This document shows positions 144 to 52,979 of a stretch of DNA of 64,000 nucleotides, one piece after another. The stretch spans positions 23,883 to 87,882 of the forward strand of contig DATLHO010000169.1 of assembly GCA_035539855.1 (NCBI GenBank). The letters run 5' to 3'. The stretch is from Candidatus Kapaibacterium sp. GTDB lineage: Bacteria; Bacteroidota; Ignavibacteria; OLB7. The notes under the pieces are model-generated. The model was not told the origin of the DNA. It worked only from the letters and a program-made list of their open reading frames with translations, and ran no database searches. Within the stretch, counting starts at the first letter, position 1. Each line of letters opens with the position of its first letter. The position numbers were made by a program, and so were the translations under genes.

Positions 144-260
144 TCGGCGTCCGCCCCTCGTCGTTATCGCGAGCAGGGAAATATTCGCGCTCGTGGGTTC
201 GTCCTCAAGAGAACATTGCGCTCACCATCTTCTGCCGGCTCTCCTCCGACCGACCAACGT

Positions 261-1604: not shown

Positions 1605-1619
1605 TTCCACGTGAAACGT
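1602..1619. promoter_or_regulatory. Conserved 18-nt motif TAGTTCCACGTGAAACGT (imperfect palindrome around CACGTG) immediately after the mnmE stop
   Basis: Identical 18-mer recurs at 3484-3501 after the mnmG stop. CACGTG core with GTTc/aAAC flanks. About 26 nt upstream of the mnmG start. Confidence 0.4.
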
Positions 1620-1644
1620 ATCCCCAATACCCGAACGCCTGAAC

Positions 1645-3486: not shown

Positions 3487-3501
3487 TTCCACGTGAAACG
3501 T
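3484..3501. promoter_or_regulatory. Second copy of TAGTTCCACGTGAAACGT motif, after the mnmG stop
   Basis: Exact repeat of 1602-1619. 18 nt upstream of the next gene start at 3519. Confidence 0.4.
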
Positions 3502-3518
3502 CGGCGGAATCCAGGCAC

Positions 3519-4418: not shown

Positions 4419-4443
4419 AGCACGATCCCCGCGTCTCTTCCCT

Positions 4444-5241: not shown

Positions 5242-5316
5242 CGCTTGATTCATTCGGTCCGCACGCGTAAAATTGTAGACTGACGCAGACTCCATATGGG
5301 CAGACCAGGGACCTCA

Positions 5317-5730
5317 ATGATGAAACGCCGCGCAGTACACCTCACGCTCGCCATGCTGGCCATCGTCGCCACCGCGACGGCGAGTCAAATCGTCTTCTCA
5401 TATCTCCGCGCCGTCCCGCAGAACGATGACATCGTCGTCCAGTGGCGGTCGATGAATGAAACCGGCATCCAGTACTTCGAGATCGATCGCAGCAGCGATG
5501 AGCTCCCGGAGTTCCGTCGCCTCGAGCGCGTCGTCGCGAAGGGTGGAGGCAGCACCTACAGCTTCACCGACAACGGCGCGTTCTACAAGCCGTCGACCGG
5601 CAAGCGCTTCACCTACCGTGTCCGCGCCATCGGCAACACCGCCGAGCCGTATTCCGCGACGACCACGGTCGTCCACGAAGTCTCGAGCGTCAAGCGCTCG
5701 TGGGGCATGATCAAGGAGCTCTTCCGCTAG
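5317..5730 (+). CDS. Hypothetical secreted protein
   Basis: MMKRRAVHLTLAMLAIVATATA signal-peptide-like N-terminus. No recognised domain. Alternative start at 5296. Confidence 0.5.
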   Translation: MMKRRAVHLTLAMLAIVATATASQIVFSYLRAVPQNDDIVVQWRSMNETGIQYFEIDRSSDELPEFRRLERVVAKGGGSTYSFTDNGAFYKPSTGKRFTYRVRAIGNTAEPYSATTTVVHEVSSVKRSWGMIKELFR

Positions 5731-5755
5731 CCCGAACCGCGTCCGACTTTTTCGC

Positions 5756-5790
5756 AATGCCGCTTCCAGCGAAGCGGCATTGTTGTTTCC
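5756..5790 (+). terminator. Rho-independent terminator hairpin
   Basis: aatgccgcttc-cagc-gaagcggcatt (11-bp stem) followed by tgttgtttcc, just after the 5317-5730 gene. Confidence 0.6.
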
Positions 5791-5900
5791 CGCCCCCTGC
5801 CGCCCTTCAAGTAAAAGTTTCTTCCGCCGCATCTAAGCCAACGCCGTCATTGCACATACCGCCACGGCACTTTAACTTCGTTTGAACCCTCGTCCAGAGC

Positions 5901-8735: not shown

Positions 8736-8755
8736 ACGAGCTCCCCCCTCAACCC

Positions 8756-14265: not shown

Positions 14266-14403
14266 CGCGCAATACACTTCGACATCTAACTTTTCTTTAA
14301 TCCTCGTCGTTGACCGACTGCGGCCAGAGATCCAGAGGTCTGGCACGTACCACAGGCACCGATTCGAATCACGGCTTCCCGGTGGGGGAGAAGCGAGTCT
14401 ACA

Positions 14404-14964
14404 GTGACGACATCGAAAAGCAGGGTAGACCGGCACGCGTCCGCCTCCGACGACGAGCTGCTGCGTCTGATCGCCGAGGGCCATAAACAGGCATTCATAC
14501 GCCTGTACGACCGGTACCGAGGCGCGCTGTTCACGTACTGCTGCCGAATGCTCGGCGACCGTGAGCGCGCGAAGGACGCCCTTCAGGAGGCATTCACAAA
14601 AGCCTACCAGAACGCGGGGATGTACCGGCCCGGGACGAATGTCTCGGCGTGGCTCTACCGACTCACACGCAACGTCTGCATCGACCTTCTGCGCGCCCGC
14701 CGCGAGCACGAGGTGATCGACGACATGCAGCTGCCGGCGCGCGAGGTCGAACAGGACGTTCTCCTGCAGGACGTGCTGACCGAGGAGATCGAAAAGCTCC
14801 CGGAGATCTATCGTGAGGCAGTCATCCTCCGCGATGTACAAGGGCACAGCTACGACGAGATCGCAACGATCACGGGCACCGCGATCTCGACGGTCAAGTT
14901 CCGAATCTTCAAGGGACGCGACACGCTCCGGCAACGGCTTGCCGCATATCTCGAGAACCAATGA
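14404..14964 (+). CDS. ECF (sigma-70 family group 4) RNA polymerase sigma factor
   Basis: GTG start. Region 2 (LIAEGHKQAFIRLYDRYRGALFTYCCRML, …NVSAWLYRLTRNVCIDLLR) and region 4 (YREAVILRDVQGHSYDEIATITGTAISTVKFRIFKGRDTLRQ). Confidence 0.85.
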   Translation: MTTSKSRVDRHASASDDELLRLIAEGHKQAFIRLYDRYRGALFTYCCRMLGDRERAKDALQEAFTKAYQNAGMYRPGTNVSAWLYRLTRNVCIDLLRARREHEVIDDMQLPAREVEQDVLLQDVLTEEIEKLPEIYREAVILRDVQGHSYDEIATITGTAISTVKFRIFKGRDTLRQRLAAYLENQ

Positions 14965-19144: not shown

Positions 19145-19802
19145 CCCGGCGATCCGCACCGGCATCCAGGAGAGCCTCGAGCTCGAGCACTTTCACGTGA
19201 TCGTCGCCACCGACGGCGAGCTTGGCAATCAGATGGCGCGGCGCGAGAAGGTCGATCTCATCCTGCTCGACCTCATGCTCCCCGGGCGCAACGGGGAGGA
19301 GATCTGCCGCGAGCTGCGTCGTGACGGCATCACGACGCCGATCATCATGCTCACGGCCAAGGGTGAGGAGATCGATCGCATTCTCGGGCTCGAGATCGGA
19401 GCCGACGACTACGTGACGAAGCCGTTCAGCATCCGCGAGCTCATCGCGCGCATCCGCGCGGTGTTGCGCCGCGGGGCCGGCAAGGGCGCCGCGACGCTCG
19501 ACGAGTATTCGTTCGGCGACGTCCACCTCGACTTTATGCGGCAGGAGGCGACCAAGGCGTCCGAGCCCCTGAAGCTGACCGCGATGGAATTCAAGATCAT
19601 GCGATACTTTGCCGAGCGCGAGGGGGCGGTGATCACGCGCGACATGCTGCTCGACGACGTGTGGGGCTACGACGCCTATCCGACGACCCGCACCGTCGAC
19701 AACTACATGCTCGGCCTGCGCAAGAAGATCGAGACATCGCCGTCAGAGCCGGAGCATCTGCTGACGGTCCACAAGGCCGGCTACAAGCTGGTCAAGGGCT
19801 GA
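19116..19802 (+). CDS. OmpR-family response regulator (REC + winged-helix)
   Basis: MKSILLIEDDPAIRTG…LLDLMLPG…TAKG (REC) and C-terminal wHTH (LTAMEFKIMRYFAEREG…RTVDNYMLGLRKKIE). Overlaps the HK 3' end by 29 nt. Confidence 0.9.
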   Translation: MKSILLIEDDPAIRTGIQESLELEHFHVIVATDGELGNQMARREKVDLILLDLMLPGRNGEEICRELRRDGITTPIIMLTAKGEEIDRILGLEIGADDYVTKPFSIRELIARIRAVLRRGAGKGAATLDEYSFGDVHLDFMRQEATKASEPLKLTAMEFKIMRYFAEREGAVITRDMLLDDVWGYDAYPTTRTVDNYMLGLRKKIETSPSEPEHLLTVHKAGYKLVKG

Positions 19803-19833
19803 ACCGAACACCCATCGACATCCGGATTTCACC

Positions 19834-20268
19834 GTGTCCGCGCTTCCCGAGCACATCACGCTTCGCACCGGCGAGAGCATCCCCGTTTCCAGCCTCGAGT
19901 TCGCGACAAGCCGCAGCGGCGGTCCCGGCGGGCAGAACGTCAACAAGGTCGAGACGAAGGTCGAGGTCCGCATGGCGATCGCCGAGTCGGAGCACCTGCG
20001 CGAGAGCACGCGTTATCGACTGCTCGAGAAGCTCGCGACGCGCCTCGACTCCGGCGGGGTGCTCCGGCTGACCAGCGCGACCGAGCGCACGCAGCTCGGC
20101 AACCGCCGTGCGGTGCTCGCGCGCCTCGCGATGCTGCTCGACGTCGCGCTCGAGCCGGAGAAGAAGCGGGTGGCGACGCGGCCGAGCCGGGGATCGAAGG
20201 TGCGGCGCAGGGAGTCCAAGGCGAAGCACGCCGAGAAGAAGGAGCAGCGGAGATGGAAGGGCGAATGA
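19834..20268 (+). CDS. arfB: Alternative ribosome-rescue factor ArfB (peptidyl-tRNA hydrolase, GGQ release-factor domain)
   Basis: 144 aa, GTG start. SRSGGPGGQNVNKVETKVEV GGQ motif. Basic C-terminal tail (RRESKAKHAEKKEQRRWKGE) typical of ArfB/YaeJ. Confidence 0.8.
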   Translation: MSALPEHITLRTGESIPVSSLEFATSRSGGPGGQNVNKVETKVEVRMAIAESEHLRESTRYRLLEKLATRLDSGGVLRLTSATERTQLGNRRAVLARLAMLLDVALEPEKKRVATRPSRGSKVRRRESKAKHAEKKEQRRWKGE

Positions 20269-20439: not shown

Positions 20440-23400
20440 ATGACCTCTGTACGACCTGCCATGCTCGCGGCCATCGCGTCGACAGCGATTGCGACGCTCG
20501 CGCTGGCATTCCCCCTGCAGGCACGCGATGCGCGTGCGGCCGCCCATCCGAGCGAGACGCGGCCCCGGGCCGAGGCGACGTACGCCACCGGGACCGTCAT
20601 CCTGAAGCTCCGCCGTGGCGTCGCGAACGAACGCCGTGGCGTCGAGTTCGACGTTCCCGCGATCGACGCGGTCATGCAGCAGATCGGCGCATCGTCGCGC
20701 ACGCCGCTGTTCCCGCGCGCGCCGATGTCCTCGACGCCGGCCGGCGTCAGCGGCGCGGCTCCGTCCGACGCCGGGTTCGACCGGGTGTACATCGTCGGCT
20801 ACGACGGCCCGTTCGATCCGAAGTGGGTCAGTGAGCGGCTGGCCGCCACGAGCGCGGTCGACTACGCCGAGCCCTACTACTTCTTCACGACCGACGGTTC
20901 GCCGGTCAACGATCCGCAGCTCGCGCAGCAGTACTGGCTCAGCGTGATCAAGGCCCAGGAAGCGTGGGATGTCACCCTTGGCAGCCCCGACGTCCTCATC
21001 GCGATCATCGACTCAGGCGTCGACTGGACGCACGAGGATCTCAGCGAGTCCATCTGGGAGAACGTCGCCGAGACCGGCACCGATGGCCAGGGCAACGACC
21101 GCCGAACCAACGGCGTCGATGACGACGGCAACGGGTTCACCGACGACTGGCACGGCTGGGATCTGGTCGGCAACGTCTCGATCGAGGATCTGATGTCGCG
21201 GCGATTCGCGCCCGACAACAACGCCGCGCCACTTCTCAACGGCACGCACGGCACGACCGTCGCCGGCTGTGCCGCCGCGCGTACGAACAACGGCAAGGGC
21301 ATCGCCTCGCCCGGCTACAGCGCGAGCATCCTGCCGGTCAAGGTCGCGGCGGATTCCGTCACGACGGCGATCAGCGCCGGCTACGAAGGCATCATCTACG
21401 CCGCGGACATGCGCGCGGCGATCATCAACTGCAGCTTCGGCGGCGCGATCACCGGCGGCTCGCAGGCGCTGCAGCAGGTCATCGATTACGCGTCGGCCCA
21501 GGGTGCGCTCGTCGTCGCGGCCAGCGGCAACTCGGGTCAGAACGTCGAGGCGGTCACGCACGTGCCTGCCGGACTCAACGGCGTTCTGTCGGTGGGCGCA
21601 ACGGGCATGTCGGATTACGCGGACACGTCGTACACCAACAGCGGTCTCGGCGTGCACGTGTACGCACCGGGCACCAACGTGCTGACGACCTATCCTGGCA
21701 ACCGCTACGCCGGCAACGGCATCACCGGCACGAGCTTCAGCTCGCCGATCACCGCCGGCGTCGCCTCGCTCGTCCTGGCGGTGCACCCGACATGGTCGGC
21801 CGCCCAGGTCGCGACACAGCTTCGAATCACCGGCGATCGCACGAACATCAACAACGCGAGCCGCTTCGCGCCGCACTTCTTCCGCCGCGTCAACGCGAAG
21901 CGCGCGGTCACGATCAATCGCTCGTTCGATTCGGGTGAGCGCATGCCGGGCCTGGCGATCGAGTCGTTCCGACTCAACGGCCGAACGCGCGACACCATCC
22001 GCAGTCTCGATGACGTCATGACCGTGACGCTGTCGCTCAAGAACCTGCTCGCGCCGACGACCGATCTGAAGATCGACACGTGGCCCGGCCAGATGCTCCG
22101 CGCCCGCTCCGTCGTCTCCGTCCCGACGATCGCCACCGCCGCGAGCGCGATGGTCGACATCGAGCTGGAGATCGATCCGGAGTCGGCCGAGCGCTTCAGC
22201 GAGGGATCGTTCGACCTCGTGCTCCGTCTGCGTGACGGCAGCTTCGAGGACGTGCTGCCGGTGCGCATCCCGGTGAAGCTCGCCGGCTGGCGCCAGATGG
22301 CGAAGTTCGGCGGACCGAGCACCGCGTACGCGACGCAGTCGATCGCCGCGCCGACGCCGACCGCCGGCTGGGCCGTGGCGAACGTCAACGGCGAGCGTCC
22401 CGCGTTCACGCGCACCAGCGACGGTCGCTCCTGGGCGACGTTCCGCAACATCGCGACGACGACGGAGCCGGTGTACTGCGTCGCGGCGGTGAGCGCGCAG
22501 CTGGCATGGGCCGGCGCGAGCCCGAGCAGCGGCTCGGCCGCGGTCTACCGCACCATCAACGGCGGCACGTCGTGGCAGAAGACGGCGGTGACGACCATCA
22601 CGCCGTTCATCAACGCGATCCACTTCTTCGACGAGAACGAAGGCATCCTCATCGGTGACCCGCGCTCGAGCCGCTGGGGAATCGGCATGACCACCGACGG
22701 TGGCGCCACGTGGCGCGCGCTGCCGAGTCCGGTCCCGGCCGGCGCCGGCGAGGCGGGCTGGAACAACTCGTTCACCGCGTTCGGCGACAACCTCTGGTTC
22801 GGTACGAACAACAATCGCATCTATCGCTCGACCGACCGCGGCTACACGTGGACGTCGGCGCAGACGCCGGGCGTCGCCTCGTTCTCGCTCGCGTTCACGT
22901 CGGCCACCGAAGGACTTGCCGTGTTCAAGCGCACGGTCTCGGGCCAGACGTGGGTCGGCGCCAACGCGCTGGCCGTCACGCGCAACGGCGGCATCTCGTG
23001 GCAGACGATCCAGCTTCCGTACGGCATGACCGCAGACGCCGCCACCGCGATCCCCGGCACCAACCGGATACTCGTGGCGACCGAGAGCGGCATCGTCGAG
23101 ACCGCCGACCTCGGCGCGACCTGGACGGTCGTGGCGGCTCCGGCCTCGGTCTTCAACTGGAAGGCCAGCGAGAGCGGCGCCCGCTACGGCACCGGCGTGC
23201 AGCTCGCGGCAGCGACCGCAGACGGAGCCGTCGCCGCCTTCGGCGTCAACGGCACCGGCACGATCATCGGCTACCGCGAGGAGGCCCCGTCGGCCGCTCC
23301 GCTCGAGGCCGAGGCCACGCGCGGCATGCTGCTCGAGCCGTTCCCGAATCCGACCGGTGACCTGACGACGATCGGCTTCGAGCTCGCCGCACCTGCCAGC

Positions 23401-23580
23401 GTCGCGCTGCGCCTGTTCGACGCTCGCGGCGTCGAAGTCCGCACGCTCCTGGCCGAGCGCCGCGAGTCCGGCCGTCACGCTGTCGTCGTCGACGCCGCAT
23501 CGCTTGCGGCCGGCACGTATCACGTCGTGCTCACCGTCGATGGCGAGCGCTCGACGAAGCCCGTCGTCATCGTCCGATAA
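20440..23580 (+). CDS. Secreted S8 (subtilisin-like) serine peptidase fused to BNR/Asp-box repeat region and T9SS-type C-terminal sorting domain
   Basis: Signal peptide. Catalytic triad motifs IIDSGVDWTHEDL (Asp), HGTTVAGCAAA (His), GTSFSSPITAGVASL (Ser). Five Asp-box-like repeats (GGTSWQK, DGGATWRA, DRGYTWT, NGGISWQT, DLGATWT). C-terminus LEPFPNPTGDLTTIGFEL…VALRLFDARGVEVRTLL…AGTYHVVLTVDGERSTKPVVIVR matches the por-secretion CTD consensus. Confidence 0.85.
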   Translation: MTSVRPAMLAAIASTAIATLALAFPLQARDARAAAHPSETRPRAEATYATGTVILKLRRGVANERRGVEFDVPAIDAVMQQIGASSRTPLFPRAPMSSTPAGVSGAAPSDAGFDRVYIVGYDGPFDPKWVSERLAATSAVDYAEPYYFFTTDGSPVNDPQLAQQYWLSVIKAQEAWDVTLGSPDVLIAIIDSGVDWTHEDLSESIWENVAETGTDGQGNDRRTNGVDDDGNGFTDDWHGWDLVGNVSIEDLMSRRFAPDNNAAPLLNGTHGTTVAGCAAARTNNGKGIASPGYSASILPVKVAADSVTTAISAGYEGIIYAADMRAAIINCSFGGAITGGSQALQQVIDYASAQGALVVAASGNSGQNVEAVTHVPAGLNGVLSVGATGMSDYADTSYTNSGLGVHVYAPGTNVLTTYPGNRYAGNGITGTSFSSPITAGVASLVLAVHPTWSAAQVATQLRITGDRTNINNASRFAPHFFRRVNAKRAVTINRSFDSGERMPGLAIESFRLNGRTRDTIRSLDDVMTVTLSLKNLLAPTTDLKIDTWPGQMLRARSVVSVPTIATAASAMVDIELEIDPESAERFSEGSFDLVLRLRDGSFEDVLPVRIPVKLAGWRQMAKFGGPSTAYATQSIAAPTPTAGWAVANVNGERPAFTRTSDGRSWATFRNIATTTEPVYCVAAVSAQLAWAGASPSSGSAAVYRTINGGTSWQKTAVTTITPFINAIHFFDENEGILIGDPRSSRWGIGMTTDGGATWRALPSPVPAGAGEAGWNNSFTAFGDNLWFGTNNNRIYRSTDRGYTWTSAQTPGVASFSLAFTSATEGLAVFKRTVSGQTWVGANALAVTRNGGISWQTIQLPYGMTADAATAIPGTNRILVATESGIVETADLGATWTVVAAPASVFNWKASESGARYGTGVQLAAATADGAVAAFGVNGTGTIIGYREEAPSAAPLEAEATRGMLLEPFPNPTGDLTTIGFELAAPASVALRLFDARGVEVRTLLAERRESGRHAVVVDAASLAAGTYHVVLTVDGERSTKPVVIVR

Positions 23581-34895: not shown

Positions 34896-35372
34896 ATGGA
34901 AGACTTCGGATCGATCATTCAGGCGACGCTCACTCCGGTCACGCTGATTTCCGGCGTAGGGCTGCTGCTGTTGAGCATGGTCAACCGCTACAACCACGCG
35001 CTCGACCGCGTTCGCCAGCAGCTCCGTGAGCTGCACACGCGATCCGAGGCCGAGCGCCAGAAGATCACCTACTCGATCGACATCATCTACGCGCGCTGCC
35101 GGCTGATCCGGCGCGCGATTCTCTGCGTCGCGATCAGCGTCGTCGCAAGCGGCGCGATCGTGTTGCAGACCGCCGTCGAGGCGCTCTTCGGATTTCAGGC
35201 CTTCGCGGTGAAGGCACTGCTCCTCGTCGTCTCCATCGGCCTCGTCGTCGTCGCCGCGATCCTCTTCGTCATCGAGATCACGTATTCGCTCCGTGCGCTC
35301 GAGATCGAGATGGAGGACGAGATGGTGCCGCGCAGCATGCTCTCGATCAGCCGGCGCCGCCGGGCTCAGTAG
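34896..35372 (+). CDS. DUF2721-like membrane protein
   Basis: N-terminal …LTPVTLISGVGLLLLSMVNRYNHALDRVRQ and two further TM helices. Assignment from memory of the family consensus. Confidence 0.5.
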   Translation: MEDFGSIIQATLTPVTLISGVGLLLLSMVNRYNHALDRVRQQLRELHTRSEAERQKITYSIDIIYARCRLIRRAILCVAISVVASGAIVLQTAVEALFGFQAFAVKALLLVVSIGLVVVAAILFVIEITYSLRALEIEMEDEMVPRSMLSISRRRRAQ

Positions 35373-36499
35373 CGCAGCAGCGCGGCGGCGGGCGCATCGT
35401 TCGGCAGTCGCTCGTGCACCGTGCAGAGGGTGCCCGAATTGCGCACGACGTTGTTGACGGCGCGGCCGAGCGGCTCGACGCCGAGGCCGCCGTAGTGCGC
35501 GCCGATCGCGCGATGATGATCGTCGGTCGCGATGAACAGCGTGCCGATCTGACCGGTCGACGAGCGATCGGCGATCTCGAGCGTGTCGAAGAGCGTTGTG
35601 GGCGTGCCTGCGTTGCGGCGCAGGCGATCGACCGCGTCGGCGTTGCCGCGCAGCAGGGTGGGCGCGACGAGATCCCACGCGCGCCGATGCAGCAGCGCCG
35701 TGGTCGTCGTCACACCGACGCCGCCGGCGACGACCGACGGGTACGTGCTGACCGAACGGTACATCGCGCGCGCCTCGGCTACGCCTGCGAGCACCAGCGG
35801 CGCGCCGCTGGACCCGATGATCCCCATCAGGCGGCGATCGATGGCGTGGAGGAATCCCTCGAACTCCCGCTTCGCGCGCTCGCGCCGGCCGGGACTTCCA
35901 TGGAACACGCCACCCGCCTTTCGATGACTTCCTCCCGCGCCCGCGGAGAGCGCGGTGCTCGCGGCGGTGTGCATCTGCGACGCGCGCTCGAACTTGAGCG
36001 TCGCGAGATACTCGTCGAAGGCCGCCGGAATAGTGCCGAGCGACTGTTCGATCATCGACTGCCGCGTCGCGCGGAACAGCCGGACCTCGCGACGATCGAT
36101 CGCGAGAATGAAGAACGTGCCGTCGTCGACAGCGAGCTCGACAAGCGGAAGCAGGTCGAAGCACGTGTCGACCCGCACCATCTCGGGGATGTCGACGGGC
36201 AGCCGGTACATTCTCAGAAGCTCGGGTGCGCGGAAGATCACGACGCCGTGCTCGGGGTCGCGCCACAGCTCGCGCTGGCCGGCAAGTGACTCGAGCGGCC
36301 GCATCACGTCGTCGACAAGCTTCTCGTCGCCGATCCTCTCGTGCAGTACCCCTCTCGCGATGCGAACCAGGTTGCGCGCGCGGGTCATGTCGATCCGGAG
36401 CCCGGATCCGGCATGCCTCGGCGGCAGGTAGATCGAAATGCAGGCCGGCGAGGTCACCGCCGCCAGGCTCGTCAGATCGTCGCGGGTAAAGCTCACCAT
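35366..36499 (-). CDS. Conserved hypothetical protein (377 aa), possible eRF1/Dom34-like (bacterial aeRF1-family) fold
   Basis: Pattern DDL…PxxSIYLPxxRxG…LWRDPEHGVVIFRAPELLRMYRLP…TFFILAIDRREVRLFRAT… resembles widespread bacterial release-factor-like unknowns. No GGQ motif. Low-confidence family call. Confidence 0.5.
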   Translation of the reverse strand: MVSFTRDDLTSLAAVTSPACISIYLPPRHAGSGLRIDMTRARNLVRIARGVLHERIGDEKLVDDVMRPLESLAGQRELWRDPEHGVVIFRAPELLRMYRLPVDIPEMVRVDTCFDLLPLVELAVDDGTFFILAIDRREVRLFRATRQSMIEQSLGTIPAAFDEYLATLKFERASQMHTAASTALSAGAGGSHRKAGGVFHGSPGRRERAKREFEGFLHAIDRRLMGIIGSSGAPLVLAGVAEARAMYRSVSTYPSVVAGGVGVTTTTALLHRRAWDLVAPTLLRGNADAVDRLRRNAGTPTTLFDTLEIADRSSTGQIGTLFIATDDHHRAIGAHYGGLGVEPLGRAVNNVVRNSGTLCTVHERLPNDAPAAALLRY

Positions 36500-37985: not shown

Positions 37986-39860
37986 ATGATGTCCGTCGCA
38001 AGTGTCCTCTCCCGGCCCTTACGCATCGCGCGGATCGGTTTTTCGGTCGCGCTGGGTGCCGCTGTGCTGCCGGTTATTACCGCCGCCCAACAGTCATCGA
38101 TCGACCCGCTTGCGCCGGGTGCCTGTCAGATCTCTCCGAGTGGTACGCTCGAGGGGTGGCTTCCGGCGGCCGGTGCGGTGACCGAAGAATACGGCCGAGG
38201 GGTCTTTGCTGTCGGTGATGCGAACGGCGACGGTCTTGGCGACTGGGTCATCGAGCATTATTTGTCTGACACGCTATACGCCAACCCTAGAAGCGGAGTC
38301 AAGAACTACGGTAACGAACTGCTTCTCTACTACGGTGTAGAAGGAGGCCACCCTGCCGCGCGCTCAGGTCGCCGTCTCGGGCCAACAGAACGATCGACGT
38401 TGAGTACTTTTCTTGGCGCCGGTGACTGGGACGGAGACGGTCATCGCGACGTCGTGTTGTTTGAGCACAGTTTATTCGATACCAGCTCGGGCAACGTCCG
38501 CGAATCGGTGATTGGCAACGTCGTCACTTACTGGGGCAACGCTTCCGGTGCGTTGTCGAACGACGACACGACGCGTCTCTCCTGCGGCGTCGAGTGGTGG
38601 ATAGAGCCACAGTGGATCGATGGCCGCCTCGGCCAGGACGCCGACGGAGACGACATCGACGATCTCGCGATCATCTCGCCCAACGATGGCTTCGCCGACG
38701 GCAGCCGGCGTCCGATCCCACGACTTCATGTGTTCACCGGCGGCCGCACACGCTGGCGGGGCAAACCCGGCGCCAATCGAGCCTCGACGGTCATATGGAA
38801 TCTGCCCGATATCGGTCTCGATCGCTGGATCGCGGGACAGTGGATCGACCACGACCGTGACGGCGCCCTCGACCTCGCTCTGCGCTACGACGTCTATGCA
38901 TCACCGGCTTCGGTTGCCGTCGTGTACGGGCGCCGCGGAGGAGAGCTCGATTCCACCGCGATGGAGTCGCTCACGCTGAGCGGCGATAGCATCGGGTACT
39001 CGCCAAGGTTCATCGACGTGACCGGCGATCGGGTGCCGGAGCTCGTCATGGCCACCGGCGAGCTCTCGACGATCCGCATCTACCTCGGACTTCGTGGCCA
39101 GCGGCTCAAGAAACAGTTCGGCTCCGGTCTGGAGCCTCCGAATCCCGGCGCTGCGGAGTACTGGGGGCGACCTTGGGCACAGATCATGTTGCCGCGAGCC
39201 CTGTCGCCCGATTGGCCGTTCGGTGGGTACGGTCCGATCTTCGATCTCGGAAATCTTGGTCGCGACGATGTCGACGATATCGCTTCGTTCGCGCGACCCT
39301 ACATCACTGTCTACAACGGAGGCAACCGCCTCGACAGCCTAGTCGACGGTTTGGTCGACGTGCCGGAGACCGACATGCTTCCCGGATTTTTCCGCAACGT
39401 CGTCTGCCGTCTCGGCGACATCGACGGAAGCGGTGTCGAGACGATCGCGGTCGGCTTCGGCGGCGCGAAGTACGAAGGCTCCTACCGGCATGGAGCGGTG
39501 CTGTTCTTCAAGCCGAGCTGGTGCGTGCCGCGCGAAGGACGCTACCGCGAACTGCCGCCCGGCACCGATCGACCCGCCCTGGTCGACGAAAAGGCGCTCG
39601 CGGCCGCGGCAGGCGACGAACTCGAATTCTCGATCTCACCGGTTCCCTCCGATGGACCGATCACTGCGCGCTGGGCTCCGCGTGCCGGCGCGGCAGTCAT
39701 CACCGTGAGTGACGCACTCGGCCGCGTCGTGTATCGAAGCGCATCGTCATTGATGCTCGCGAGCACGAGCGTCGACCTCGCCGGGTTGCGTCCTGGAACG
39801 TACCTCGTCACCCTGACCACCGGTCAGCTCCGCAGCTCCCGCCCCCTCGTCGTTCGATAA
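37986..39860 (+). CDS. Secreted FG-GAP/VCBS-repeat protein with T9SS-type C-terminal sorting domain
   Basis: Signal peptide. Repeated Ca-binding-like DxDxDG motifs (GDANGDGLGDWVI, GDWDGDGHRDVVL, DADGDDIDDLAII, DHDRDGALDLAL, GDIDGSGVETIAVG). CTD …ELEFSISPVPSDGPITARW…VITVSDALGRVVYRS…GLRPGTYLVTLTTGQLRSSRPLVVR. Confidence 0.75.
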   Translation: MMSVASVLSRPLRIARIGFSVALGAAVLPVITAAQQSSIDPLAPGACQISPSGTLEGWLPAAGAVTEEYGRGVFAVGDANGDGLGDWVIEHYLSDTLYANPRSGVKNYGNELLLYYGVEGGHPAARSGRRLGPTERSTLSTFLGAGDWDGDGHRDVVLFEHSLFDTSSGNVRESVIGNVVTYWGNASGALSNDDTTRLSCGVEWWIEPQWIDGRLGQDADGDDIDDLAIISPNDGFADGSRRPIPRLHVFTGGRTRWRGKPGANRASTVIWNLPDIGLDRWIAGQWIDHDRDGALDLALRYDVYASPASVAVVYGRRGGELDSTAMESLTLSGDSIGYSPRFIDVTGDRVPELVMATGELSTIRIYLGLRGQRLKKQFGSGLEPPNPGAAEYWGRPWAQIMLPRALSPDWPFGGYGPIFDLGNLGRDDVDDIASFARPYITVYNGGNRLDSLVDGLVDVPETDMLPGFFRNVVCRLGDIDGSGVETIAVGFGGAKYEGSYRHGAVLFFKPSWCVPREGRYRELPPGTDRPALVDEKALAAAAGDELEFSISPVPSDGPITARWAPRAGAAVITVSDALGRVVYRSASSLMLASTSVDLAGLRPGTYLVTLTTGQLRSSRPLVVR

Positions 39861-39888
39861 CTCCTTCCGCAACGAGTTCGAGTTAGCC

Positions 39889-42800
39889 ATGACACCCCAC
39901 CCGCGATTCACCTCGGGCCCATTGGCCCTATTCCTCTTTGTTGTGTTTCTCGCGCCATCGTCCGGCAAGGCGCAATCGAGCGGACGCTACCGCAATTTCC
40001 ATTACGACTCCACGTTCCACATCGGCAGCCATAACCTCAGCCTCGTCAGGCTCGCGAAGGACACGATCGGCTTCGATTTCAATTACAACTACGCCGCCGA
40101 CCTGGCCGGCATCCGCGCACTGCTGAACACGCCCGACAGTCTGCTCACCTGGGGCCAGATCTACGAGAAGCGATACTATCTAGCAGCCGACACATGCTCG
40201 TTCGGGCTCATTTTCACACCGAGCCGCTTCAAAGCGCTGGAGGGGGAGAGCAGCGATGGCGCGCAGGGGGGTAGCTTTCGATGCCAGGACAATTACGTTC
40301 GTGGGGACGCCAACCTGCAGCTCCTCGACTATGCCGACGCGCCGCCCGCAAGTGGTATCTGGGCTAGCGCCATCGACGGTCAGGTAAGCGCTCTGGAGAT
40401 TCCGAAACTCGCTTCGCCTGTGAATCAGACAATCATAACGATGCCCCGGTATGTGTCGACTCTAGGACTTCACCTGCCAAGCACGAAATTCTACGACAGC
40501 GCTACGATGGGTGACCATCACCTGGGACCGGACAGCCTCCGGTATCGATTCAAGATCGGTTTCCATATCGTAGCTCCGGACATCATTGAAGTCGATCCGA
40601 CAGACACGATTGCGTACGCCACGTTCTATCAGCGTGTCGATACGTTGCAGGGTCAGGAAAGCACGGACTGCCGCTGCCGGATCTATGAGCCGTTCGAAAC
40701 GCTCGTCGTCACGCGAGCCACATACTTAGACAATGACCTTTCACCGCTGGTTGGTGGGGTTGAAGGCAATTACCGGGACGTTAGTAGGTGGATCGATATC
40801 CGCGGCGGGTGGTACCATCCCGCGCCGGGCCAGTCGTTTCGGTCACGCCTCGGAGACTGGCTTGGAAGCCTCAATGCAGGTCCATGCACATCCATCGGCC
40901 CGCAGCGCACCTGTGCCTCGCTTCTGCTGTGGCTCCGCGACACACTACAGATCCTGGACCCCGGCTCGCTGTCACTTTCAGACGATGCCCTTGAATCCGA
41001 TCTGATCTTTAGCTTCACCACGACACGCCGCACGAAAATCAGGTACCTCAGAAGCCGTGTATCGTCGCACGCGTTCGAGGCGCTCCAGGCCGGTACACTT
41101 GACGACTGGCTGAAGGAGGAGATCGCTCTCTTTTACACGGACAGCGTTCTCGCCCCCATGCGGCGGCAACTCCTACGCTTCGGCGTTTACGACGAACCGC
41201 ACTGGCCGATGTATCCGGCGAACCGACTGCTCGCGCTCAAGCTCCAGGACTTCATCGAGGACGACAGCGCGGGCGACCGCCGCGGTCTCTTCCAGAACCC
41301 TACTACTAGCTTCGACAGTTATCGCACGTTTCTCGGTGATCTGAATCCCAACCAGCGCAAGGCCATTCACCAGATGTCGCGTCAGCTCTTCAACGTCATC
41401 GGGGGGCCCGTGCCGGTGCGATATGCCAACCCCGATTTCATGGATGATGCGGCCCTCGAGTCATTCTACGCGCCGAATGGCACCGCGGGCTTTCCCAAGA
41501 TGATAGCGCTGACCTCGCCGACTGATTACCAGGCGTATCTCTATCGCACGCAGAAGTACGCCTTCGGTAAGTATTTCGACCACAACAATAACGACCTGCC
41601 TGACTCCGCCCAGACGACAGTCAAAGGCGCCCTCGTTCCAATGCTCGGTCGCTTGGTCGACGTCGGCAGATTCAAGTATCAGAATCGCGTTCGCGACAGC
41701 GTTCCGATCTGGAACGTCGTGCAGACGTCGGGCTGGCTTCCCGAAGCCGGCAACGTGGAGGATACGCTCGGGTACCGCGGCCTATGGTCGCAGCGGCTCG
41801 TCACGCCTGAAGAGGTGGCGGCTCAATGCTGGCTCTCGCTCAACGCGGGCGTCCAGGGTCTCGAATTCCAGGAGCCGGCGTTCGACGGGCCGAACGTCGG
41901 CTACGTCGATCAGTTCCTTGGGACCGGCCGCGTCAAATGGGCGCTACCGTTCGATTCGCTCGGCAACGGCGAGTATGACACCGCCACAGCGAGCCATAGC
42001 AAGTTTTGGGAGGGGACGCCGAAAACTCAGTGGCGATTCCCGAAGATGTGGCTCGGCTTTCGTACGCGGTATCTCGCAGTCAAGCGTATCATCGCCGAAC
42101 TCCGCAGAATCGATACCGTCTACTCGAGATTGTACTATCGCAAAGAGCAGATCTCAATTTTCGATACGCGGCAATCCCTCGACACGTTCCCGTTGGTTCA
42201 GTCACTGCAGACGCGGCTTGCGCGACGATTCCCGAACAGCAGCGGCGGCTTTGGCGATTCAACAGTGGTCGATGCGCGCGATTCGACCTATCTCGAGCTG
42301 ACACATCTCTATCCGGGTCCGCGTGATACCGTCGCCTTCCGTCGCGGTGCACGATATCTGGTTCTGACGAATCGCCGCACGTGGCCGATCGATACGCTCA
42401 CGTACTCCAGCCGCACGACCCAGTACGGATCTGCGACGCGCGGTTATGGAAACATCGACGTCCGCCGGCCCCTCGTCGTCCTCAAGAACACGACAGGAGT
42501 CATTGCCGACAGTTTCTTCGTCGAGAAGGTCGGCTACGAGTCGACAACAAGGGACACGGCACGCTTCGGGGACACCGTCGTCCTCGGCTGGCTCGAGCCT
42601 GGCTGGGGAGCACTGTATCGAATCACGCCGTTGCCGAGCGGAGTCTCACAGGGCGGCACCTCGTACAACAACGTCATTCACAGCATCAATCCGTCGACTC
42701 GTGACAGCGTTTGCGATCGCCTCGTCGTCTACGAGAAGGACTCGATCGTCTACCTGCGTGCGGTCGATTCGACCGGCAAATGGAGTCGCCCGTGGCGTAT

Positions 42801-45000
42801 CAGTGATACAACCGACATTCGTGACAGCTCGTCGCCGTGGCTGCCGCGCGCCAGGAATTTCCATCCGGCCGTCGCCGTCACGCCCGGCGGGACGTCGGCA
42901 CTCGTGGTCTGGGAGCGCTGGCACGTCGATTCCTCCGCCGCCTCCGTCGAGGCCTTATGGATCGAGAGCCGGCCGAAGGCATCGGCCGCCAACATCGGCG
43001 ACAGCATTCGATTCCATGTCACGCGCGACCGCCTCAGGACGAATCCCCTCGATACGTTGGGTTTCGCTCCGGCGGCCATCGGAATTGACGGAGGCTATGT
43101 CATTGCCTATGCGACCGGCAACGAGCATGGGATGAGCCTGACGGTATTGCAGGACCAGCCGTATGGCCTCGTCTCCGGCACAACGAACGATACGGCGAGC
43201 GCGCATGCCATCTGCTGGAACTGCCAGGGCACGGCGTTGCCACCCCTGATCGACAGCACGTCGTACTTCCCCACGCTCGCCTACGTTCGCAACGAGGGCA
43301 TCGTCCCGTTTGTCAATCATTGGCGGTGGTGTGGGACCGGTCCTGGCGACTCGATCGTTCCCTCGAACATGTCGGCGCATGTCGTACACCTCGCCTACCA
43401 GCAGGGTAGGCTGCACCTTGCCAACGCGCAGTACATCATGTACAACCAGGCGGCGATCACGTTTCGGCAGAACCAGTTCCCCTCCTATCCACCCGCGATC
43501 TGGATCTCGCCGACGGAGCACGTTAGTGCGGGACTTCCCGGGTGCGGCTTCCTTCATCCTTCGATCGCCGCCGACTCGGTGCTGACCGGCGTAGCGTTCC
43601 AGGCGCACTCGAGCGCTCGCCGGCGCGTCGTGCTACGCTTCCGAGACACGCTGACGTTCCCGGTCTTCAAGGCAACGTGGAAAACGCCAACATATGCCTG
43701 GGCAGAGCGGAGCACCGATTGGTACGAATGGCCCTCCGCAACGCAATTCCCGGCCCTGCCAATGACGGCACTCAGAGGTGCGACCGGCGGGCCCAAGGGA
43801 GGTATCGTCTGGTATCATTCCAACGACACAACGGGCGTTACGCCACAGTATCTCTATCGCTACGGCTATGCGGCGGTCGAGAGAATTCCGAACGGCCAGT
43901 ATCCAACGCTGACGCTCGTTCCGTTTCTCGATACGCTTCCATTTGAATCGTCCAGCATCTTCTATCGAGGGGATACCTCGTCACAATATCTGGGACCGCG
44001 ACCCGGCCTTACGACCGGCACATACTATCCGGCCGCTCTGTTGAACACAGGCACTACCCGATCATCCCTGTTCCGCACAGCAGTTGAGGACAACATCGTA
44101 CACGGTGTCGATATCCGGACGATTTCGGAGCGCAACTGCTCACCTTTTGCCATCCGTGATCGTGATATCAAGGCGGGCCTCTTGACGATGACAACCATCA
44201 CAGAGACCGGGGAGGTCGCGACGTCGGCGACGACGCCGGGGCTTCCTCCGTCGTTCTTTGCCGAACCGATCAACGACAACACGGTGGTCGAATCGCTCGA
44301 GCAATCGGAGCGAGTTGCACGGACGAGTGTCTTTGCGACCACGGCGATCAATCAAGCGATTCGCCGGCAGGTCTCACGCGCGAGCAACGTGATGTCGTGG
44401 CTTGATGGCGAGCCCTACGACAGTGTGCTTCAGCGCGACGCGGACGTTTGGGTACTCACGGAACTCGTACGTGCGGCCGACAGCGTCGTGCTATGGCACG
44501 ACGATACGATCTCCGTTCGCGCGATGACGGTCGACTCACTCGACGAGAGCGTCGAGGTACCGACGAGTACCTACGCGGCACCCAACACGCCTGTCTTCGT
44601 GCGCCTGCGCGTCGAGGCGACCGAGGGTCTCGCGTACGTTCTATCGGCTGGCTTCGAGTGGTCCCGCACGGGACCGCCTTTCACACCTAAGCCAGGCAGG
44701 CGCTTCAAGCAGCGGCAGAATGTACTGGACGCTGGTAGCGAACTGTCGGTTATGGTTCATCCAATTCCGGCTTCGGAGGAACTGCAGATATCGGTTCTCT
44801 CGAAATCATCGGGCCGACTGACGTACATGCTGCGAGACAACCGGGGGTTAGCCGTCGGCGCGCCCGGCACAACCACGGTCTCGGCGGATCGCCCGGCAAT
44901 CGTTCCGTACGATCTGCGGGATGTTCCGAGCGGAAGCTACTATCTCGAGGTCACCGTTAACGGCAATCGCGTCGTCACGAAGGTCTCCGTGCTCCGTTGA
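39889..45000 (+). CDS. Giant secreted protein of unknown function (1703 aa) with T9SS-type C-terminal sorting domain
   Basis: Signal MTPHPRFTSGPLALFLFVVFLAPSSGKAQ. W/Y-rich, no recognised catalytic motif. C-terminus …ELSVMVHPIPASEELQISVLSKSSGRLTYMLRDNRG…SGSYYLEVTVNGNRVVTKVSVLR fits the CTD consensus. Begins 29 nt after the FG-GAP gene, so likely co-transcribed. Confidence 0.75.
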   Translation: MTPHPRFTSGPLALFLFVVFLAPSSGKAQSSGRYRNFHYDSTFHIGSHNLSLVRLAKDTIGFDFNYNYAADLAGIRALLNTPDSLLTWGQIYEKRYYLAADTCSFGLIFTPSRFKALEGESSDGAQGGSFRCQDNYVRGDANLQLLDYADAPPASGIWASAIDGQVSALEIPKLASPVNQTIITMPRYVSTLGLHLPSTKFYDSATMGDHHLGPDSLRYRFKIGFHIVAPDIIEVDPTDTIAYATFYQRVDTLQGQESTDCRCRIYEPFETLVVTRATYLDNDLSPLVGGVEGNYRDVSRWIDIRGGWYHPAPGQSFRSRLGDWLGSLNAGPCTSIGPQRTCASLLLWLRDTLQILDPGSLSLSDDALESDLIFSFTTTRRTKIRYLRSRVSSHAFEALQAGTLDDWLKEEIALFYTDSVLAPMRRQLLRFGVYDEPHWPMYPANRLLALKLQDFIEDDSAGDRRGLFQNPTTSFDSYRTFLGDLNPNQRKAIHQMSRQLFNVIGGPVPVRYANPDFMDDAALESFYAPNGTAGFPKMIALTSPTDYQAYLYRTQKYAFGKYFDHNNNDLPDSAQTTVKGALVPMLGRLVDVGRFKYQNRVRDSVPIWNVVQTSGWLPEAGNVEDTLGYRGLWSQRLVTPEEVAAQCWLSLNAGVQGLEFQEPAFDGPNVGYVDQFLGTGRVKWALPFDSLGNGEYDTATASHSKFWEGTPKTQWRFPKMWLGFRTRYLAVKRIIAELRRIDTVYSRLYYRKEQISIFDTRQSLDTFPLVQSLQTRLARRFPNSSGGFGDSTVVDARDSTYLELTHLYPGPRDTVAFRRGARYLVLTNRRTWPIDTLTYSSRTTQYGSATRGYGNIDVRRPLVVLKNTTGVIADSFFVEKVGYESTTRDTARFGDTVVLGWLEPGWGALYRITPLPSGVSQGGTSYNNVIHSINPSTRDSVCDRLVVYEKDSIVYLRAVDSTGKWSRPWRISDTTDIRDSSSPWLPRARNFHPAVAVTPGGTSALVVWERWHVDSSAASVEALWIESRPKASAANIGDSIRFHVTRDRLRTNPLDTLGFAPAAIGIDGGYVIAYATGNEHGMSLTVLQDQPYGLVSGTTNDTASAHAICWNCQGTALPPLIDSTSYFPTLAYVRNEGIVPFVNHWRWCGTGPGDSIVPSNMSAHVVHLAYQQGRLHLANAQYIMYNQAAITFRQNQFPSYPPAIWISPTEHVSAGLPGCGFLHPSIAADSVLTGVAFQAHSSARRRVVLRFRDTLTFPVFKATWKTPTYAWAERSTDWYEWPSATQFPALPMTALRGATGGPKGGIVWYHSNDTTGVTPQYLYRYGYAAVERIPNGQYPTLTLVPFLDTLPFESSSIFYRGDTSSQYLGPRPGLTTGTYYPAALLNTGTTRSSLFRTAVEDNIVHGVDIRTISERNCSPFAIRDRDIKAGLLTMTTITETGEVATSATTPGLPPSFFAEPINDNTVVESLEQSERVARTSVFATTAINQAIRRQVSRASNVMSWLDGEPYDSVLQRDADVWVLTELVRAADSVVLWHDDTISVRAMTVDSLDESVEVPTSTYAAPNTPVFVRLRVEATEGLAYVLSAGFEWSRTGPPFTPKPGRRFKQRQNVLDAGSELSVMVHPIPASEELQISVLSKSSGRLTYMLRDNRGLAVGAPGTTTVSADRPAIVPYDLRDVPSGSYYLEVTVNGNRVVTKVSVLR

Positions 45001-45180
45001 CGCTCGAGTACGCCTGGCTGTCCACTGGATCACTCCAGCGTCGTCGCGGGGAACGCTCGACCTAGGATTCGCCTGGGCCGGCGTGGGACCATTTGATCGA
45101 GCCGCTCCCGAGCCCCCAACCTTCAAGTAGCCACTGAAGCGACGCCGGATACGCGATCCGTATCTCCGGTGAAATGGTAA

Positions 45181-45208
45181 GGGGTAGCCGCTCATGAGCA
45201 GCTACCCC
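45181..45208. terminator. Bidirectional terminator-like hairpin between convergent genes
   Basis: ggggtagc-cgctcatgagca-gctacccc. 8-bp stem whose loop is itself palindromic (gctcatgagc). Confidence 0.5.
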
Positions 45209-45239
45209 CTATCCTGATTCGCGCCGATATCGGCTCCAT

Positions 45240-51305: not shown

Positions 51306-52979
51306 ATGAGATTCGATAGGGCATGGATTCGCACGTCGGCCATGTGGCGCCTGAAGCGGCCTCTCGGCCGCCGGCTCTCCGTCGCGGTCCTACTCGGACT
51401 GGCTGCGTCTCTCCTGGTCGCTCCGGCCAACGCGCAGGTCGGTGAAATCCTCGCCAGCCCCGGTCCGGTCAAGCTGCGCCTGCTCTGGGCGCGCACGAGC
51501 ACCGAGGCCGGGACCGGGATCGGAACCGGTCTGGCGGCGATTCCCGATATCGACGGTGATGGCCGCGACGAGGTGCTGATTGGCACACTCGTTCCACAGG
51601 AGCTGCGATTGTACCATGGAGAGAGTACCGGACTGCGGCTCGATGAGGAATGGCGACTCGTGGGCGAATTCGCATGGCGAGGCACTACCGCGAATCCGGA
51701 CCTTTTCGGCGACGGGCGCCGGTTTGTCATGCTTGTTGGCGGCGCCAGTGAGCTTCATTTCTACCCGATCGACTCGGGCCGCATCGCAATGACGCCGACG
51801 ATGATCTGGCCGGCGACGCGCGCTGATTCACCGGGAATACGAGGCGCTCTGAGCGACTTCGCGGTCGCCGATCTAAATGGCGACGGCGCTGACGAACTGA
51901 TCGCCTTCATTGGGTTCATACGGGGCGCACCGGAGCCGCACCACTCGCAGGTCTGGATCTACCAGGGAGGCCCGAACTTCCAGCTCGATATGCCGACGAC
52001 CGTTCTGCGGGAAACAATCGCGGAGTTCGGCTACTCGCCGAAAGGCGGCGTCGGGGACTTCGACGGTGACGGTCACGTCGATATCGGGATGCTACAGATA
52101 CCGACGAAGAGCGGAGGGAACCATCTGATGTTCTGGTTCGGCGATGGACAACTTCCGGCGGACGGAGCGCACCCTGATCGCTCGGTCAATGTCGAGTACG
52201 GGTCGTGGCGCGCGGTCAATGTCGACGGCGACGGCGTAAGCGATATTCTCACGGATCAGTTTGTGTTCCACACTGCCAGCGGCAAGGACGCACGCATGCG
52301 GACGTTCGACGTGACGGACGCCGACCTGATGCTGTCTCAGAACCGCTATTTCCTGCAACACTTCGGTCCGATGAACAACCGCGCGGGTCGCTACGACATG
52401 GTCGGCACGACGGCATACGACGTCGTCAATGGCGGCCAGCTTCGCGCGTTTTCCGGTGGACCGAACGGACCCGACGCGACATACGATGCAGTGTTCTACG
52501 AGTCCGACCATGGATTCTTCGAAAGCCCAAGCGGCTATAATATGCCTGCGGGCGACGTCAACGGGGATGGCTGGTCAGATTTCCTCGCCGGCAATCCCAG
52601 ATACTACGACGACACTGACCGCGGAGCCGTCATAGTTCTCGCCGGCGGTCCATACATCCCGGTCGACGACCCGTCGATGGGCGTGCGCGAGGTCGTCACC
52701 GGCGAGCGTCCGCGATCGGTGTACATCTGGCCGATGCCGGTCGGCGATGAATTGAACATCGCCTGGCGCGGCGACCTCGAACGCATGCCCGCGCGCTTCA
52801 AGGTCTTCGATGTCGGAGGTGGGCTGGTCGCCCGAGGTGCGGTCGATCCGTATGTCGGCTCGGCGCACTGGCGCTGCGGCGATGCTCCGCCGGGCGCGTA
52901 TGTGCTCCGCGTGCTCGACGAAGACGGCGGGCTGCTTGGAACGGCGTCGTTCGTCAAGCGATCGATCCCCCCACTCTGA
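51306..52979 (+). CDS. Secreted FG-GAP/VCBS-repeat protein with T9SS-type C-terminal sorting domain
   Basis: Signal. DxDGDG repeats (IPDIDGDGRDEVLIG, ADLNGDGADELIAF, VGDFDGDGHVDIG, NVDGDGVSDIL, GDVNGDGWSDFLAG). CTD …SVYIWPMPVGDELNIAW…FKVFDVGGGLVARG…PGAYVLRVLDEDGGLLGTASFVKR. Confidence 0.75.
   Translation: MRFDRAWIRTSAMWRLKRPLGRRLSVAVLLGLAASLLVAPANAQVGEILASPGPVKLRLLWARTSTEAGTGIGTGLAAIPDIDGDGRDEVLIGTLVPQELRLYHGESTGLRLDEEWRLVGEFAWRGTTANPDLFGDGRRFVMLVGGASELHFYPIDSGRIAMTPTMIWPATRADSPGIRGALSDFAVADLNGDGADELIAFIGFIRGAPEPHHSQVWIYQGGPNFQLDMPTTVLRETIAEFGYSPKGGVGDFDGDGHVDIGMLQIPTKSGGNHLMFWFGDGQLPADGAHPDRSVNVEYGSWRAVNVDGDGVSDILTDQFVFHTASGKDARMRTFDVTDADLMLSQNRYFLQHFGPMNNRAGRYDMVGTTAYDVVNGGQLRAFSGGPNGPDATYDAVFYESDHGFFESPSGYNMPAGDVNGDGWSDFLAGNPRYYDDTDRGAVIVLAGGPYIPVDDPSMGVREVVTGERPRSVYIWPMPVGDELNIAWRGDLERMPARFKVFDVGGGLVARGAVDPYVGSAHWRCGDAPPGAYVLRVLDEDGGLLGTASFVKRSIPPL

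Follow-up and report, generated by a model that had tools for sequence, protein, structure and literature searches.

A conserved two-gene cassette in Kapabacteria-class Bacteroidota: an FG-GAP protein and a giant cargo-family protein with a predicted glycosidase-like barrel

The stretch of DNA analysed here, 64,000 nucleotides of a Candidatus Kapaibacterium sp. contig (DATLHO010000169.1; hereafter the window), carries two adjacent open reading frames (ORFs) on the forward strand: ORF A, which encodes an FG-GAP repeat protein, and ORF B, which encodes a giant protein (Table 1). Both lie where an earlier reading made from the letters alone (the sequence-only reading) had placed them, and the close spacing described there is also real, although the gap between stop codon and ATG is 28 nt and the 29 nt given is the difference between the two coordinates. 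Both proteins begin with the hydrophobic, signal-like N-termini ending in Ala-Gln that had been read as signal peptides. The residue right after the predicted cleavage site is Gln in both, Q35 of ORF A (38088) and Q29 of ORF B (39973), and Q29 is invariant in 28/28 full-length members of the ORF B family. Exported proteins of Bacteroidetes have often been reported with N-terminal pyroglutamate, which a Gln after the cleavage site would fit. In NCBI taxonomy, Kapaibacteriia (= Eximiradiia) is now a class within the phylum Bacteroidota, and ORF A is identical to a protein from a Kapabacteria metagenome-assembled genome (MAG). Thus, the premise that these genes represent type IX secretion system (T9SS) cargo from outside Bacteroidota fails.

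The arrangement of the two genes is conserved. Of 15 independent related loci, 14 have an FG-GAP homologue in the same orientation immediately before the giant gene (L007–L010, L012–L018, the contigs of P0002 and P0031, and L001, where a tail resembling a T9SS C-terminal domain (CTD) was counted; the exception is L005/L006). Therefore, ORF A and ORF B form a conserved two-gene cassette, and the operon-like cargo pair of the sequence-only reading does look, on sequence grounds, like a co-oriented pair of cargo genes. For instance, the relative that is 84% identical to ORF B is preceded by a gene for a 622-aa FG-GAP sorting-domain protein with an identical 28-nt gap, the contig of a 46% relative starts with a sorting-domain-like tail 77 nt upstream of the giant gene, and in a 35% relative the FG-GAP gene (608 aa) ends 53 nt before the giant gene. 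Twelve further loci come from six species-representative MAGs; eleven of these have upstream sequence, and in all eleven the giant gene directly follows one or two co-oriented FG-GAP homologues. P0035 (L005/L006) is the sole case in which the upstream homologue is missing. Up to four copies of the pair are found in single genomes, and FG-GAP paralogues also exist without a giant gene.

At L003 (8001-17902), in a 3.2-Mb genome, five or more FG-GAP paralogues of 606-643 aa, with sorting domains, stand in tandem. At L002 (10001-15512), likewise in a 3.2-Mb genome, an FG-GAP gene is followed by a 652-aa homologue of ORF B aa 34-597 (E 3e-23), which has no sorting domain and adjoins a convergent glycoside hydrolase family 18 (GH18) gene that has one. 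In the MAG HK-STAS-BACT-82, two genes downstream of the giant gene are shared between two loci at 74% and 98% identity (L009, 8567-10090; L013, 8786-10321), which indicates that these copies arose by segmental duplication. On the P0002 contig (JGI 3300071358, 406-6176), fragments of an MmeI-type restriction enzyme alternate with two FG-GAP paralogues, in the order 159 aa (MmeI_hel), 639 aa (FG-GAP), 420 aa (MmeI_N+hel) and 622 aa (FG-GAP), and it looks as if a segment was duplicated or inserted into an MmeI gene. The six MAGs are labelled Bacteroidota, Bacteroidetes or Ignavibacteria in four cases, Alphaproteobacteria in one and Armatimonadota in one (L017, L018); for the last two, mislabelling or mis-binning is probably likelier than true occurrence, and both loci have the upstream FG-GAP partner.

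The assignment of ORF A as an FG-GAP protein holds: PF13517 (FG-GAP_3) matches it with 26.9 bits, exactly the Pfam cutoff, and its relatives bear PF13517 and PF01839. A pattern search finds four D-x-D/N-G-D-G-x-x-D loops (at aa 78, 147, 218 and 288), and three more degenerate calcium loops can be seen by eye (aa 344, 426 and 477); the region is probably a seven-bladed calcium-binding propeller. At the extreme C-terminus, TIGR04183, the profile of the type A sorting domain, matches aa 565-623 with 24.9 bits and passes its cutoff of 23, and PF18962 matches aa 552-619 with 22 bits, below its cutoff of 27. The NCBI protein that corresponds to ORF A carries the annotation “T9SS type A sorting domain-containing protein” and is encoded on a 102,786-bp contig of a MAG labelled “Candidatus Kapabacteria bacterium”. 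It is 486 aa long, 100% identical over that part, and begins 138 codons downstream; it lacks 37986-38399 and hence the signal peptide. Homologues of 592-639 aa span the full length of ORF A and favour the long form, so public annotation shortens this protein at the cost of its signal peptide.

A word-indexed search of 5.8e9 clusters with ORF B returned three proteins only (ORF B itself, the 84% relative and the 46% relative), and so did the same search with a 35-sequence family alignment. It took a full HMMER profile scan to find the family: a profile of aa 200-1399 run against 1.84e9 representatives gave 112 matches, all of them family members or their fragments and none from another protein family. 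Some 40 of the matches are complete proteins of 1,620-1,845 aa. The 35 full-length members that were aligned share about 30% identity and about 46 invariant residues. Outside its tail, ORF B matches no Pfam, NCBIfam or PDB sequence, and family profiles found no PDB sequence similar to its passenger part. ORF B founds an unannotated, previously undescribed cargo family (about 110 clusters) of a known secretion system. The protein itself was seen in Logan assemblies only and not among NCBI proteins.

The C-terminal tail of ORF B, taken by itself, stays below the curated cutoffs of both sorting-domain profiles. PF18962 gives 14.7 bits (E 0.038; cutoff 27), TIGR04183 does not match the full-length protein at E<=1, and on the last 100 aa alone it reaches 16.4 bits (E 0.0066), again below cutoff. 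Thus, sorting domains on both proteins, as the sequence-only reading had it, can be upheld for ORF A directly and for ORF B only by way of its family. The last 100 aa of the family show the textbook type A pattern V-x-P-N-P ... G-x-Y ... V-x-R. TIGR04183 matches 31/31 of these tails at E<=1 (best 3.4e-10) and 21/31 at E<=7e-5, which is approximately its curated cutoff; PF18962 matches 25/28 full-length members and is the sole consistent Pfam family on them, with weak FlgD_ig matches on three members and a weak DUF1242 match on one. Among PDB sequences, the family profile matches only CTDs: those of PorU (6za2), mirolase (8qb1) and two other T9SS substrates. Therefore, the family is a genuine family of cargo proteins from which ORF B has diverged, and the tail of ORF B, as judged from the sequences of its relatives, is a true type A sorting domain, albeit a divergent one. 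Curated thresholds miss such divergent members, and family-level evidence recovers them.

A different reading of the tail is that it is a decayed immunoglobulin-like (Ig-like) domain, in which case ORF B would not be a type IX substrate and would stay periplasmic or reach the surface by another route. The sub-threshold scores agree with it, as does the P-N-P motif, whose Asn, present in 90% of relatives, is replaced by Ile in ORF B. We nevertheless consider it very improbable: the tail aligns end to end with those of 30 relatives and keeps the invariant P22, P24, G50 and G79, the nearly invariant Y81 and a terminus of the form ...KVSVLR; the 84%-identical orthologue retains P-N-P; and both the adjacent ORF A and a third protein of the window, an S8 peptidase (20440-23580; 25.1 bits), pass TIGR04183.

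AlphaFold models of ORF B were built from family alignments in two segments, both with high confidence. The model of aa 28-905 (predicted local distance difference test score (pLDDT) 87.5, predicted template modelling score (pTM) 0.90) shows a (beta/alpha)8 barrel followed by a beta-sandwich, and that of aa 896-1620 (pLDDT 83.4, pTM 0.87) shows a seven-bladed propeller and a region of beta-sandwich. The barrel is thus predicted to have the (beta/alpha)8 fold of clan GH-A glycosidases. Conservation among the 35 members was mapped onto the predicted secondary structure of the barrel and not onto superposed coordinates. E436 is invariant (35/35) and lies four residues past predicted strand 4 (aa 428-432), with D at 435 in 30/35; on these predicted strands, Glu436 would sit at the acid/base position of clan GH-A. 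After predicted strand 6, Q499 is kept in 31/35 and Y501 in 33/35 (the copy in the window has Phe at this position), N470 is also conserved near the C-terminal end of a predicted barrel strand, and residue 662, after predicted strand 8, is D or E in 33/35. Past predicted strand 7 (aa 607-611), residue 612 is Q in 26/35, D in 3/35 and E in 2/35. The sequence-only reading had found no recognisable catalytic motif in a protein of unknown function; the former is still true of the sequence but not of the modelled fold, and the latter finds no support in the segment models, which point to a barrel similar to that of clan GH-A, one of whose Glu residues is invariant.

Several results weigh against export of the pair and a role in glycan processing. 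The nucleophile Glu that clan GH-A carries after strand 7 is not conserved, being Glu in 2/35 only; the position is mostly Gln, and therefore the classical retaining GH-A mechanism is unlikely. No glycosidase family profile of Pfam or NCBIfam matches ORF B or, at E<=1, any of 28 family members, family profiles find no glycosidase among PDB sequences at E<=10, and Foldseek of the barrel model against the PDB gives nothing at E<=1e-3 (weak matches to the jelly-roll of Eph receptors were disregarded). The assignment of residues to strands comes from predicted secondary structure. In ten related loci, no conserved third gene lies downstream of the pair, and the varying neighbours give no clue to a substrate. 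Finally, the 64-kb window encodes none of the type IX machinery components PorV, SprA, PorU and GldK/L/M/N. Indirectly in favour of such machinery in the genome are the place of the host in a class of Bacteroidota and the statement of a review that, with few exceptions, proteins with T9SS CTDs track the core components of the system (PMC10202324).

Some of these results would suit a non-catalytic surface adhesin or lectin, in which the pseudo-glycosidase barrel and the propeller only bind ligands and which, together with the FG-GAP protein, serves attachment or gliding and not hydrolysis. In addition to the strand-7 position, which carries Q in most members, the strongest conservation of the family falls in the propeller and not in the barrel, and the FG-GAP paralogues expand in tandem (L003), as adhesins often do. 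This is a serious alternative, though an unlikely one: E436 stays invariant across sequences that are about 30% identical, and the C-terminal ends of predicted barrel strands carry further conserved residues (D435, N470, Q499, Y501 and D/E662), which is the pattern of an active site. Moreover, several glycosidase families, for instance GH18, GH20, GH85 and GH99, work without an enzyme nucleophile.

This last point raises another possibility, that the barrel is an active glycosidase which acts by neighbouring-group participation, similar to hexosaminidases or chitinases, with D435-E436 polarising and protonating and the acetamido group of the substrate serving as nucleophile. The textbook pattern of GH18 and GH20 has a D-E pair after strand 4, a Tyr after strand 6 and no Glu after strand 7, and the family resembles it in all three respects (D-E in 30/35 and 35/35, Y501 in 33/35); the shortened ORF B homologue of L002 also adjoins a GH18 gene with a sorting domain. 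We regard this mechanism as clearly improbable: the copy in the window has Phe and not Tyr at 501, the GH18 neighbour is one instance, and the geometry of the residues depends on predicted strands and not on coordinates.

On balance, and with slightly better than even confidence, we favour the reading that the pair is a conserved cassette of Kapabacteria-class Bacteroidota which encodes an exported FG-GAP propeller and a giant surface protein that processes glycan. The data directly support the pairing of the genes, the conservation of the pair, the folds (as predicted) and the homology of the sorting domains; from these we infer export, surface location, a glycan substrate and catalysis. By analogy with type A cargo in studied Bacteroidota, signal peptidase would cut both proteins ahead of the conserved Gln, both would fold in the periplasm, and the translocon would recognise their C-terminal domains, which would then be removed, leaving the proteins freed or tethered at the cell surface. 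There, the barrel of the giant protein would most likely bind and cleave or remodel an extracellular glycan, with invariant Glu436 after strand 4 as the putative general acid/base, and the FG-GAP partner and the propeller may supply binding to the substrate or the surface.

A more far-reaching version of the favoured reading is tentative, and we would doubt it sooner than accept it. In this version, the family of about 110 clusters is a new carbohydrate-active enzyme (CAZyme) family confined to Kapabacteria- and Ignavibacteria-like Bacteroidota, with a GH-A-like barrel that lacks the canonical nucleophile (an unusual mechanism) and a propeller, which together with the FG-GAP partner would make up an obligate two-protein surface machine and the first described co-evolving pair of type A T9SS cargo. 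If the barrel is active, it would represent a new glycosidase family, maybe with a non-classical mechanism, from a little-studied environmental class of Bacteroidota; if the FG-GAP partnership is strict, the pair would be a case of type A cargoes acting together. Nothing here overturns the present understanding of type IX secretion, and the interest is mainly for specialists in CAZymes and in type IX secretion.

Table 1. Features of the cassette and of other loci in the window, in window coordinates (aa, positions in the respective protein).
Feature	Position	Strand	Basis or remarks
ORF A, 624 aa, FG-GAP propeller protein with type A sorting domain, secretion predicted	37986..39860	+	ORF, translation, PF13517, TIGR04183
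ORF A, predicted Sec signal peptide, aa 1-34, cleavage between A34 and Q35	37986..38087	+	12-aa hydropathy 2.28, then ...ITAA followed by QQ
ORF A, FG-GAP repeat region, about aa 60-515	38163..39530	+	PF13517, calcium-loop patterns
ORF A, type A T9SS C-terminal sorting domain, aa 552-624	39639..39857	+	TIGR04183, PF18962
Intergenic spacer ORF A-ORF B, 28 nt	39861..39888	+	
ORF B, giant protein, 1,703 aa	39889..45000	+	from an unannotated family of about 1,620-1,845 aa
ORF B, predicted signal peptide, aa 1-28, cleavage between A28 and Q29	39889..39972	+	hydropathy 2.83
ORF B, predicted (beta/alpha)8 barrel similar to that of clan GH-A, aa 29-745	39973..42123	+	model
ORF B, predicted barrel insertion after strand 3, about 300 aa (aa ~112-427)	within 39973..42123	+	model; contains beta-rich subdomain
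ORF B, predicted beta-sandwich after barrel, aa ~748-900	42130..42588	+	strands at model positions 721-871; boundaries approximate
ORF B, predicted seven-bladed beta-propeller, aa ~940-1390	42706..44058	+	model; holds most conserved stretch of family
ORF B, predicted second beta-sandwich region, aa ~1400-1595	44086..44673	+	strands at model positions 507-696; boundaries approximate
ORF B, divergent type A T9SS sorting domain, aa 1623-1703	44755..44997	+	family alignment, sub-cutoff profile scores
GC-rich hairpin between giant gene and convergent YceI gene	45176..45213	.	22-nt palindromic arms, 91% complementary
mnmE (low-GC3 gene)	144-1604		
mnmG (low-GC3 gene)	1615-3486		
sigma-70-family gene (low-GC3 gene)	14314-14964		
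Second FG-GAP gene (low-GC3 gene)	51306-52979		

The base composition of the pair differs from that of most of the window, as the sequence-only reading had noticed. The window has a GC content of 66.1%, and the 1-kb bins over 40001-45000 drop to 0.586-0.608. In per-gene statistics over 42 genes, GC content and GC content at third codon positions (GC3) are 0.603 and 0.731 in the giant gene and 0.637 and 0.730 in ORF A, against means of 0.669 and 0.850 (standard deviation 0.046) in the other 40 genes; the pair thus has a GC3 z of about -2.6, and about -2.5 on an index similar to codon adaptation. GC3 in the window is bimodal, and the low class extends beyond the pair to mnmE (0.725), mnmG (0.736), a gene of the sigma-70 family (0.770) and a second FG-GAP gene (0.746); this group shares a low codon index as well, and all remaining genes lie at 0.81-0.92.

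Horizontal acquisition had been hinted at before, and the shift could mean that the pair arrived recently as a horizontal island. In favour of this, GC3 and codon index each lie about 2.5 standard deviations off, and the 84%-identical relative has other sequence upstream of its pair, namely MmeI fragments and another FG-GAP copy. The family occurs in several copies and shows segmental duplications (the downstream genes of L009 and L013), and genes of mobile elements are sometimes nearby (L004 has an rve_2 fragment, L012 has Phage_CRI). In addition, at the loci L009, L010, L013 and L016, from a 51%-GC MAG, the giant genes have a GC3 of 0.62-0.66 against 0.37-0.57 in neighbouring ORFs, the opposite of the window, as for genes that hop between hosts, although those ORFs were picked by a crude length rule. 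The shift is real, but the core genes mnmE and mnmG share it, and the flanks of the pair are housekeeping genes. The 64-kb window contains no tRNA and no integrase, the pair has no flanking direct or inverted repeats, and with neither tRNA nor repeats the reading as an integrative element was dropped. Moreover, the pair and its 28-nt spacer are the same in the 84% relative, which argues for vertical descent at least since the common ancestor. Horizontal acquisition of the pair is possible, and a recent island is a rather unlikely explanation of its GC3. Taken as a whole, the sequence-only reading recorded something real but partly mis-framed: its observation is partly confirmed, and its interpretation partly supported.

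The rest of the window is ordinary chromosome; among its genes are mnmE, mnmG and those for malic enzyme, isocitrate dehydrogenase, citrate synthase, ABC transporters and extracytoplasmic function (ECF) sigma factors. Two further CTD cargoes had been proposed there; the S8 peptidase is indeed a third cargo of the window, but the second FG-GAP protein matches neither TIGR04183 nor PF18962 at E<=1. By eye, the tail of that protein (52700-52979) resembles a sorting domain (...PPGAYVLRVLDEDG...FVKRSIPPL). The idea that it is a paralogue of ORF A was rejected (E 0.32); the two are unrelated beyond their repeats. Downstream of the giant gene, the hairpin at 45176-45213 is present in both the minimum free energy and the centroid folds, shows no clear T-run on the + strand, and is possibly a terminator; promoter and terminator scans did not rise above shuffled expectation. 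The window also encodes a protein of baeRF (bacterial archaeo-eukaryotic release-factor-like) family 3/7 (35366-36499, -) and a small RF-1-domain protein (19765-20268, +). Two same-strand ORFs, 5886-8735 (tetratricopeptide repeats) and 8117-10468 (783 aa, no Pfam match), overlap by about 600 nt, and probably one start or one ORF is wrong.

Compared with known systems, the predicted barrel of ORF B is nearest to clan GH-A (closest the GH164 beta-mannosidase 6t5o, with the GH42 beta-galactosidases 4ucf, 3tts and 1kwk), with which it would share the order of barrel and then beta-sandwich. It differs from GH164 and GH42 in being only 9-13% identical with no sequence-profile match, in its insertion of about 300 residues after strand 3 and in the replacement of the strand-7 nucleophile Glu by Gln in most members. 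Where clan GH-A has N-E-P at the acid/base after strand 4, the family has D-E and a variable residue (D-E-P in the copy in the window), and the trimerisation domain of GH42 was not detected. The propeller of ORF B is at most 10% identical to those of seven-bladed propeller enzymes (GH145 BACINT_00347, 5mum; the polysaccharide lyase family 42 enzyme FoRham1, 7esk) and to generic propellers (CylK, YncE, WD40), and the comparison scores do not tell enzymes from scaffolds. ORF A shares FG-GAP repeats and D-x-D-G-D-G calcium loops with FG-GAP/VCBS propeller proteins (integrin alpha-like; PF13517/PF01839), and differs from them in being bacterial with a type IX sorting tail and in belonging to a lineage-specific family that builds tandem arrays (L003) and precedes the giant gene.

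As cargo, the pair can be compared with RgpB of P. gingivalis and RemA of F. johnsoniae. Adjacency of a cargo and its partner is known for type B cargo with PorP/SprF (PMC10202324); literature searches turned up no description of a conserved adjacency of two type A cargoes, and no work that deals specifically with FG-GAP cargo or with type IX secretion in Kapabacteria. Similar to RgpB and RemA, both proteins have an N-terminal signal peptide (predicted here) and end in an Ig-like sorting domain, some 80 residues long, that bears P-x-P, G-x-Y and basic-hydrophobic end motifs; the host is likewise a member of Bacteroidota, and several cargoes lie in one region of the genome. In contrast to RgpB and RemA, the sorting domain of ORF B itself is sub-threshold, its passenger part matches no described cargo family, and the two cargoes form a conserved adjacent pair.

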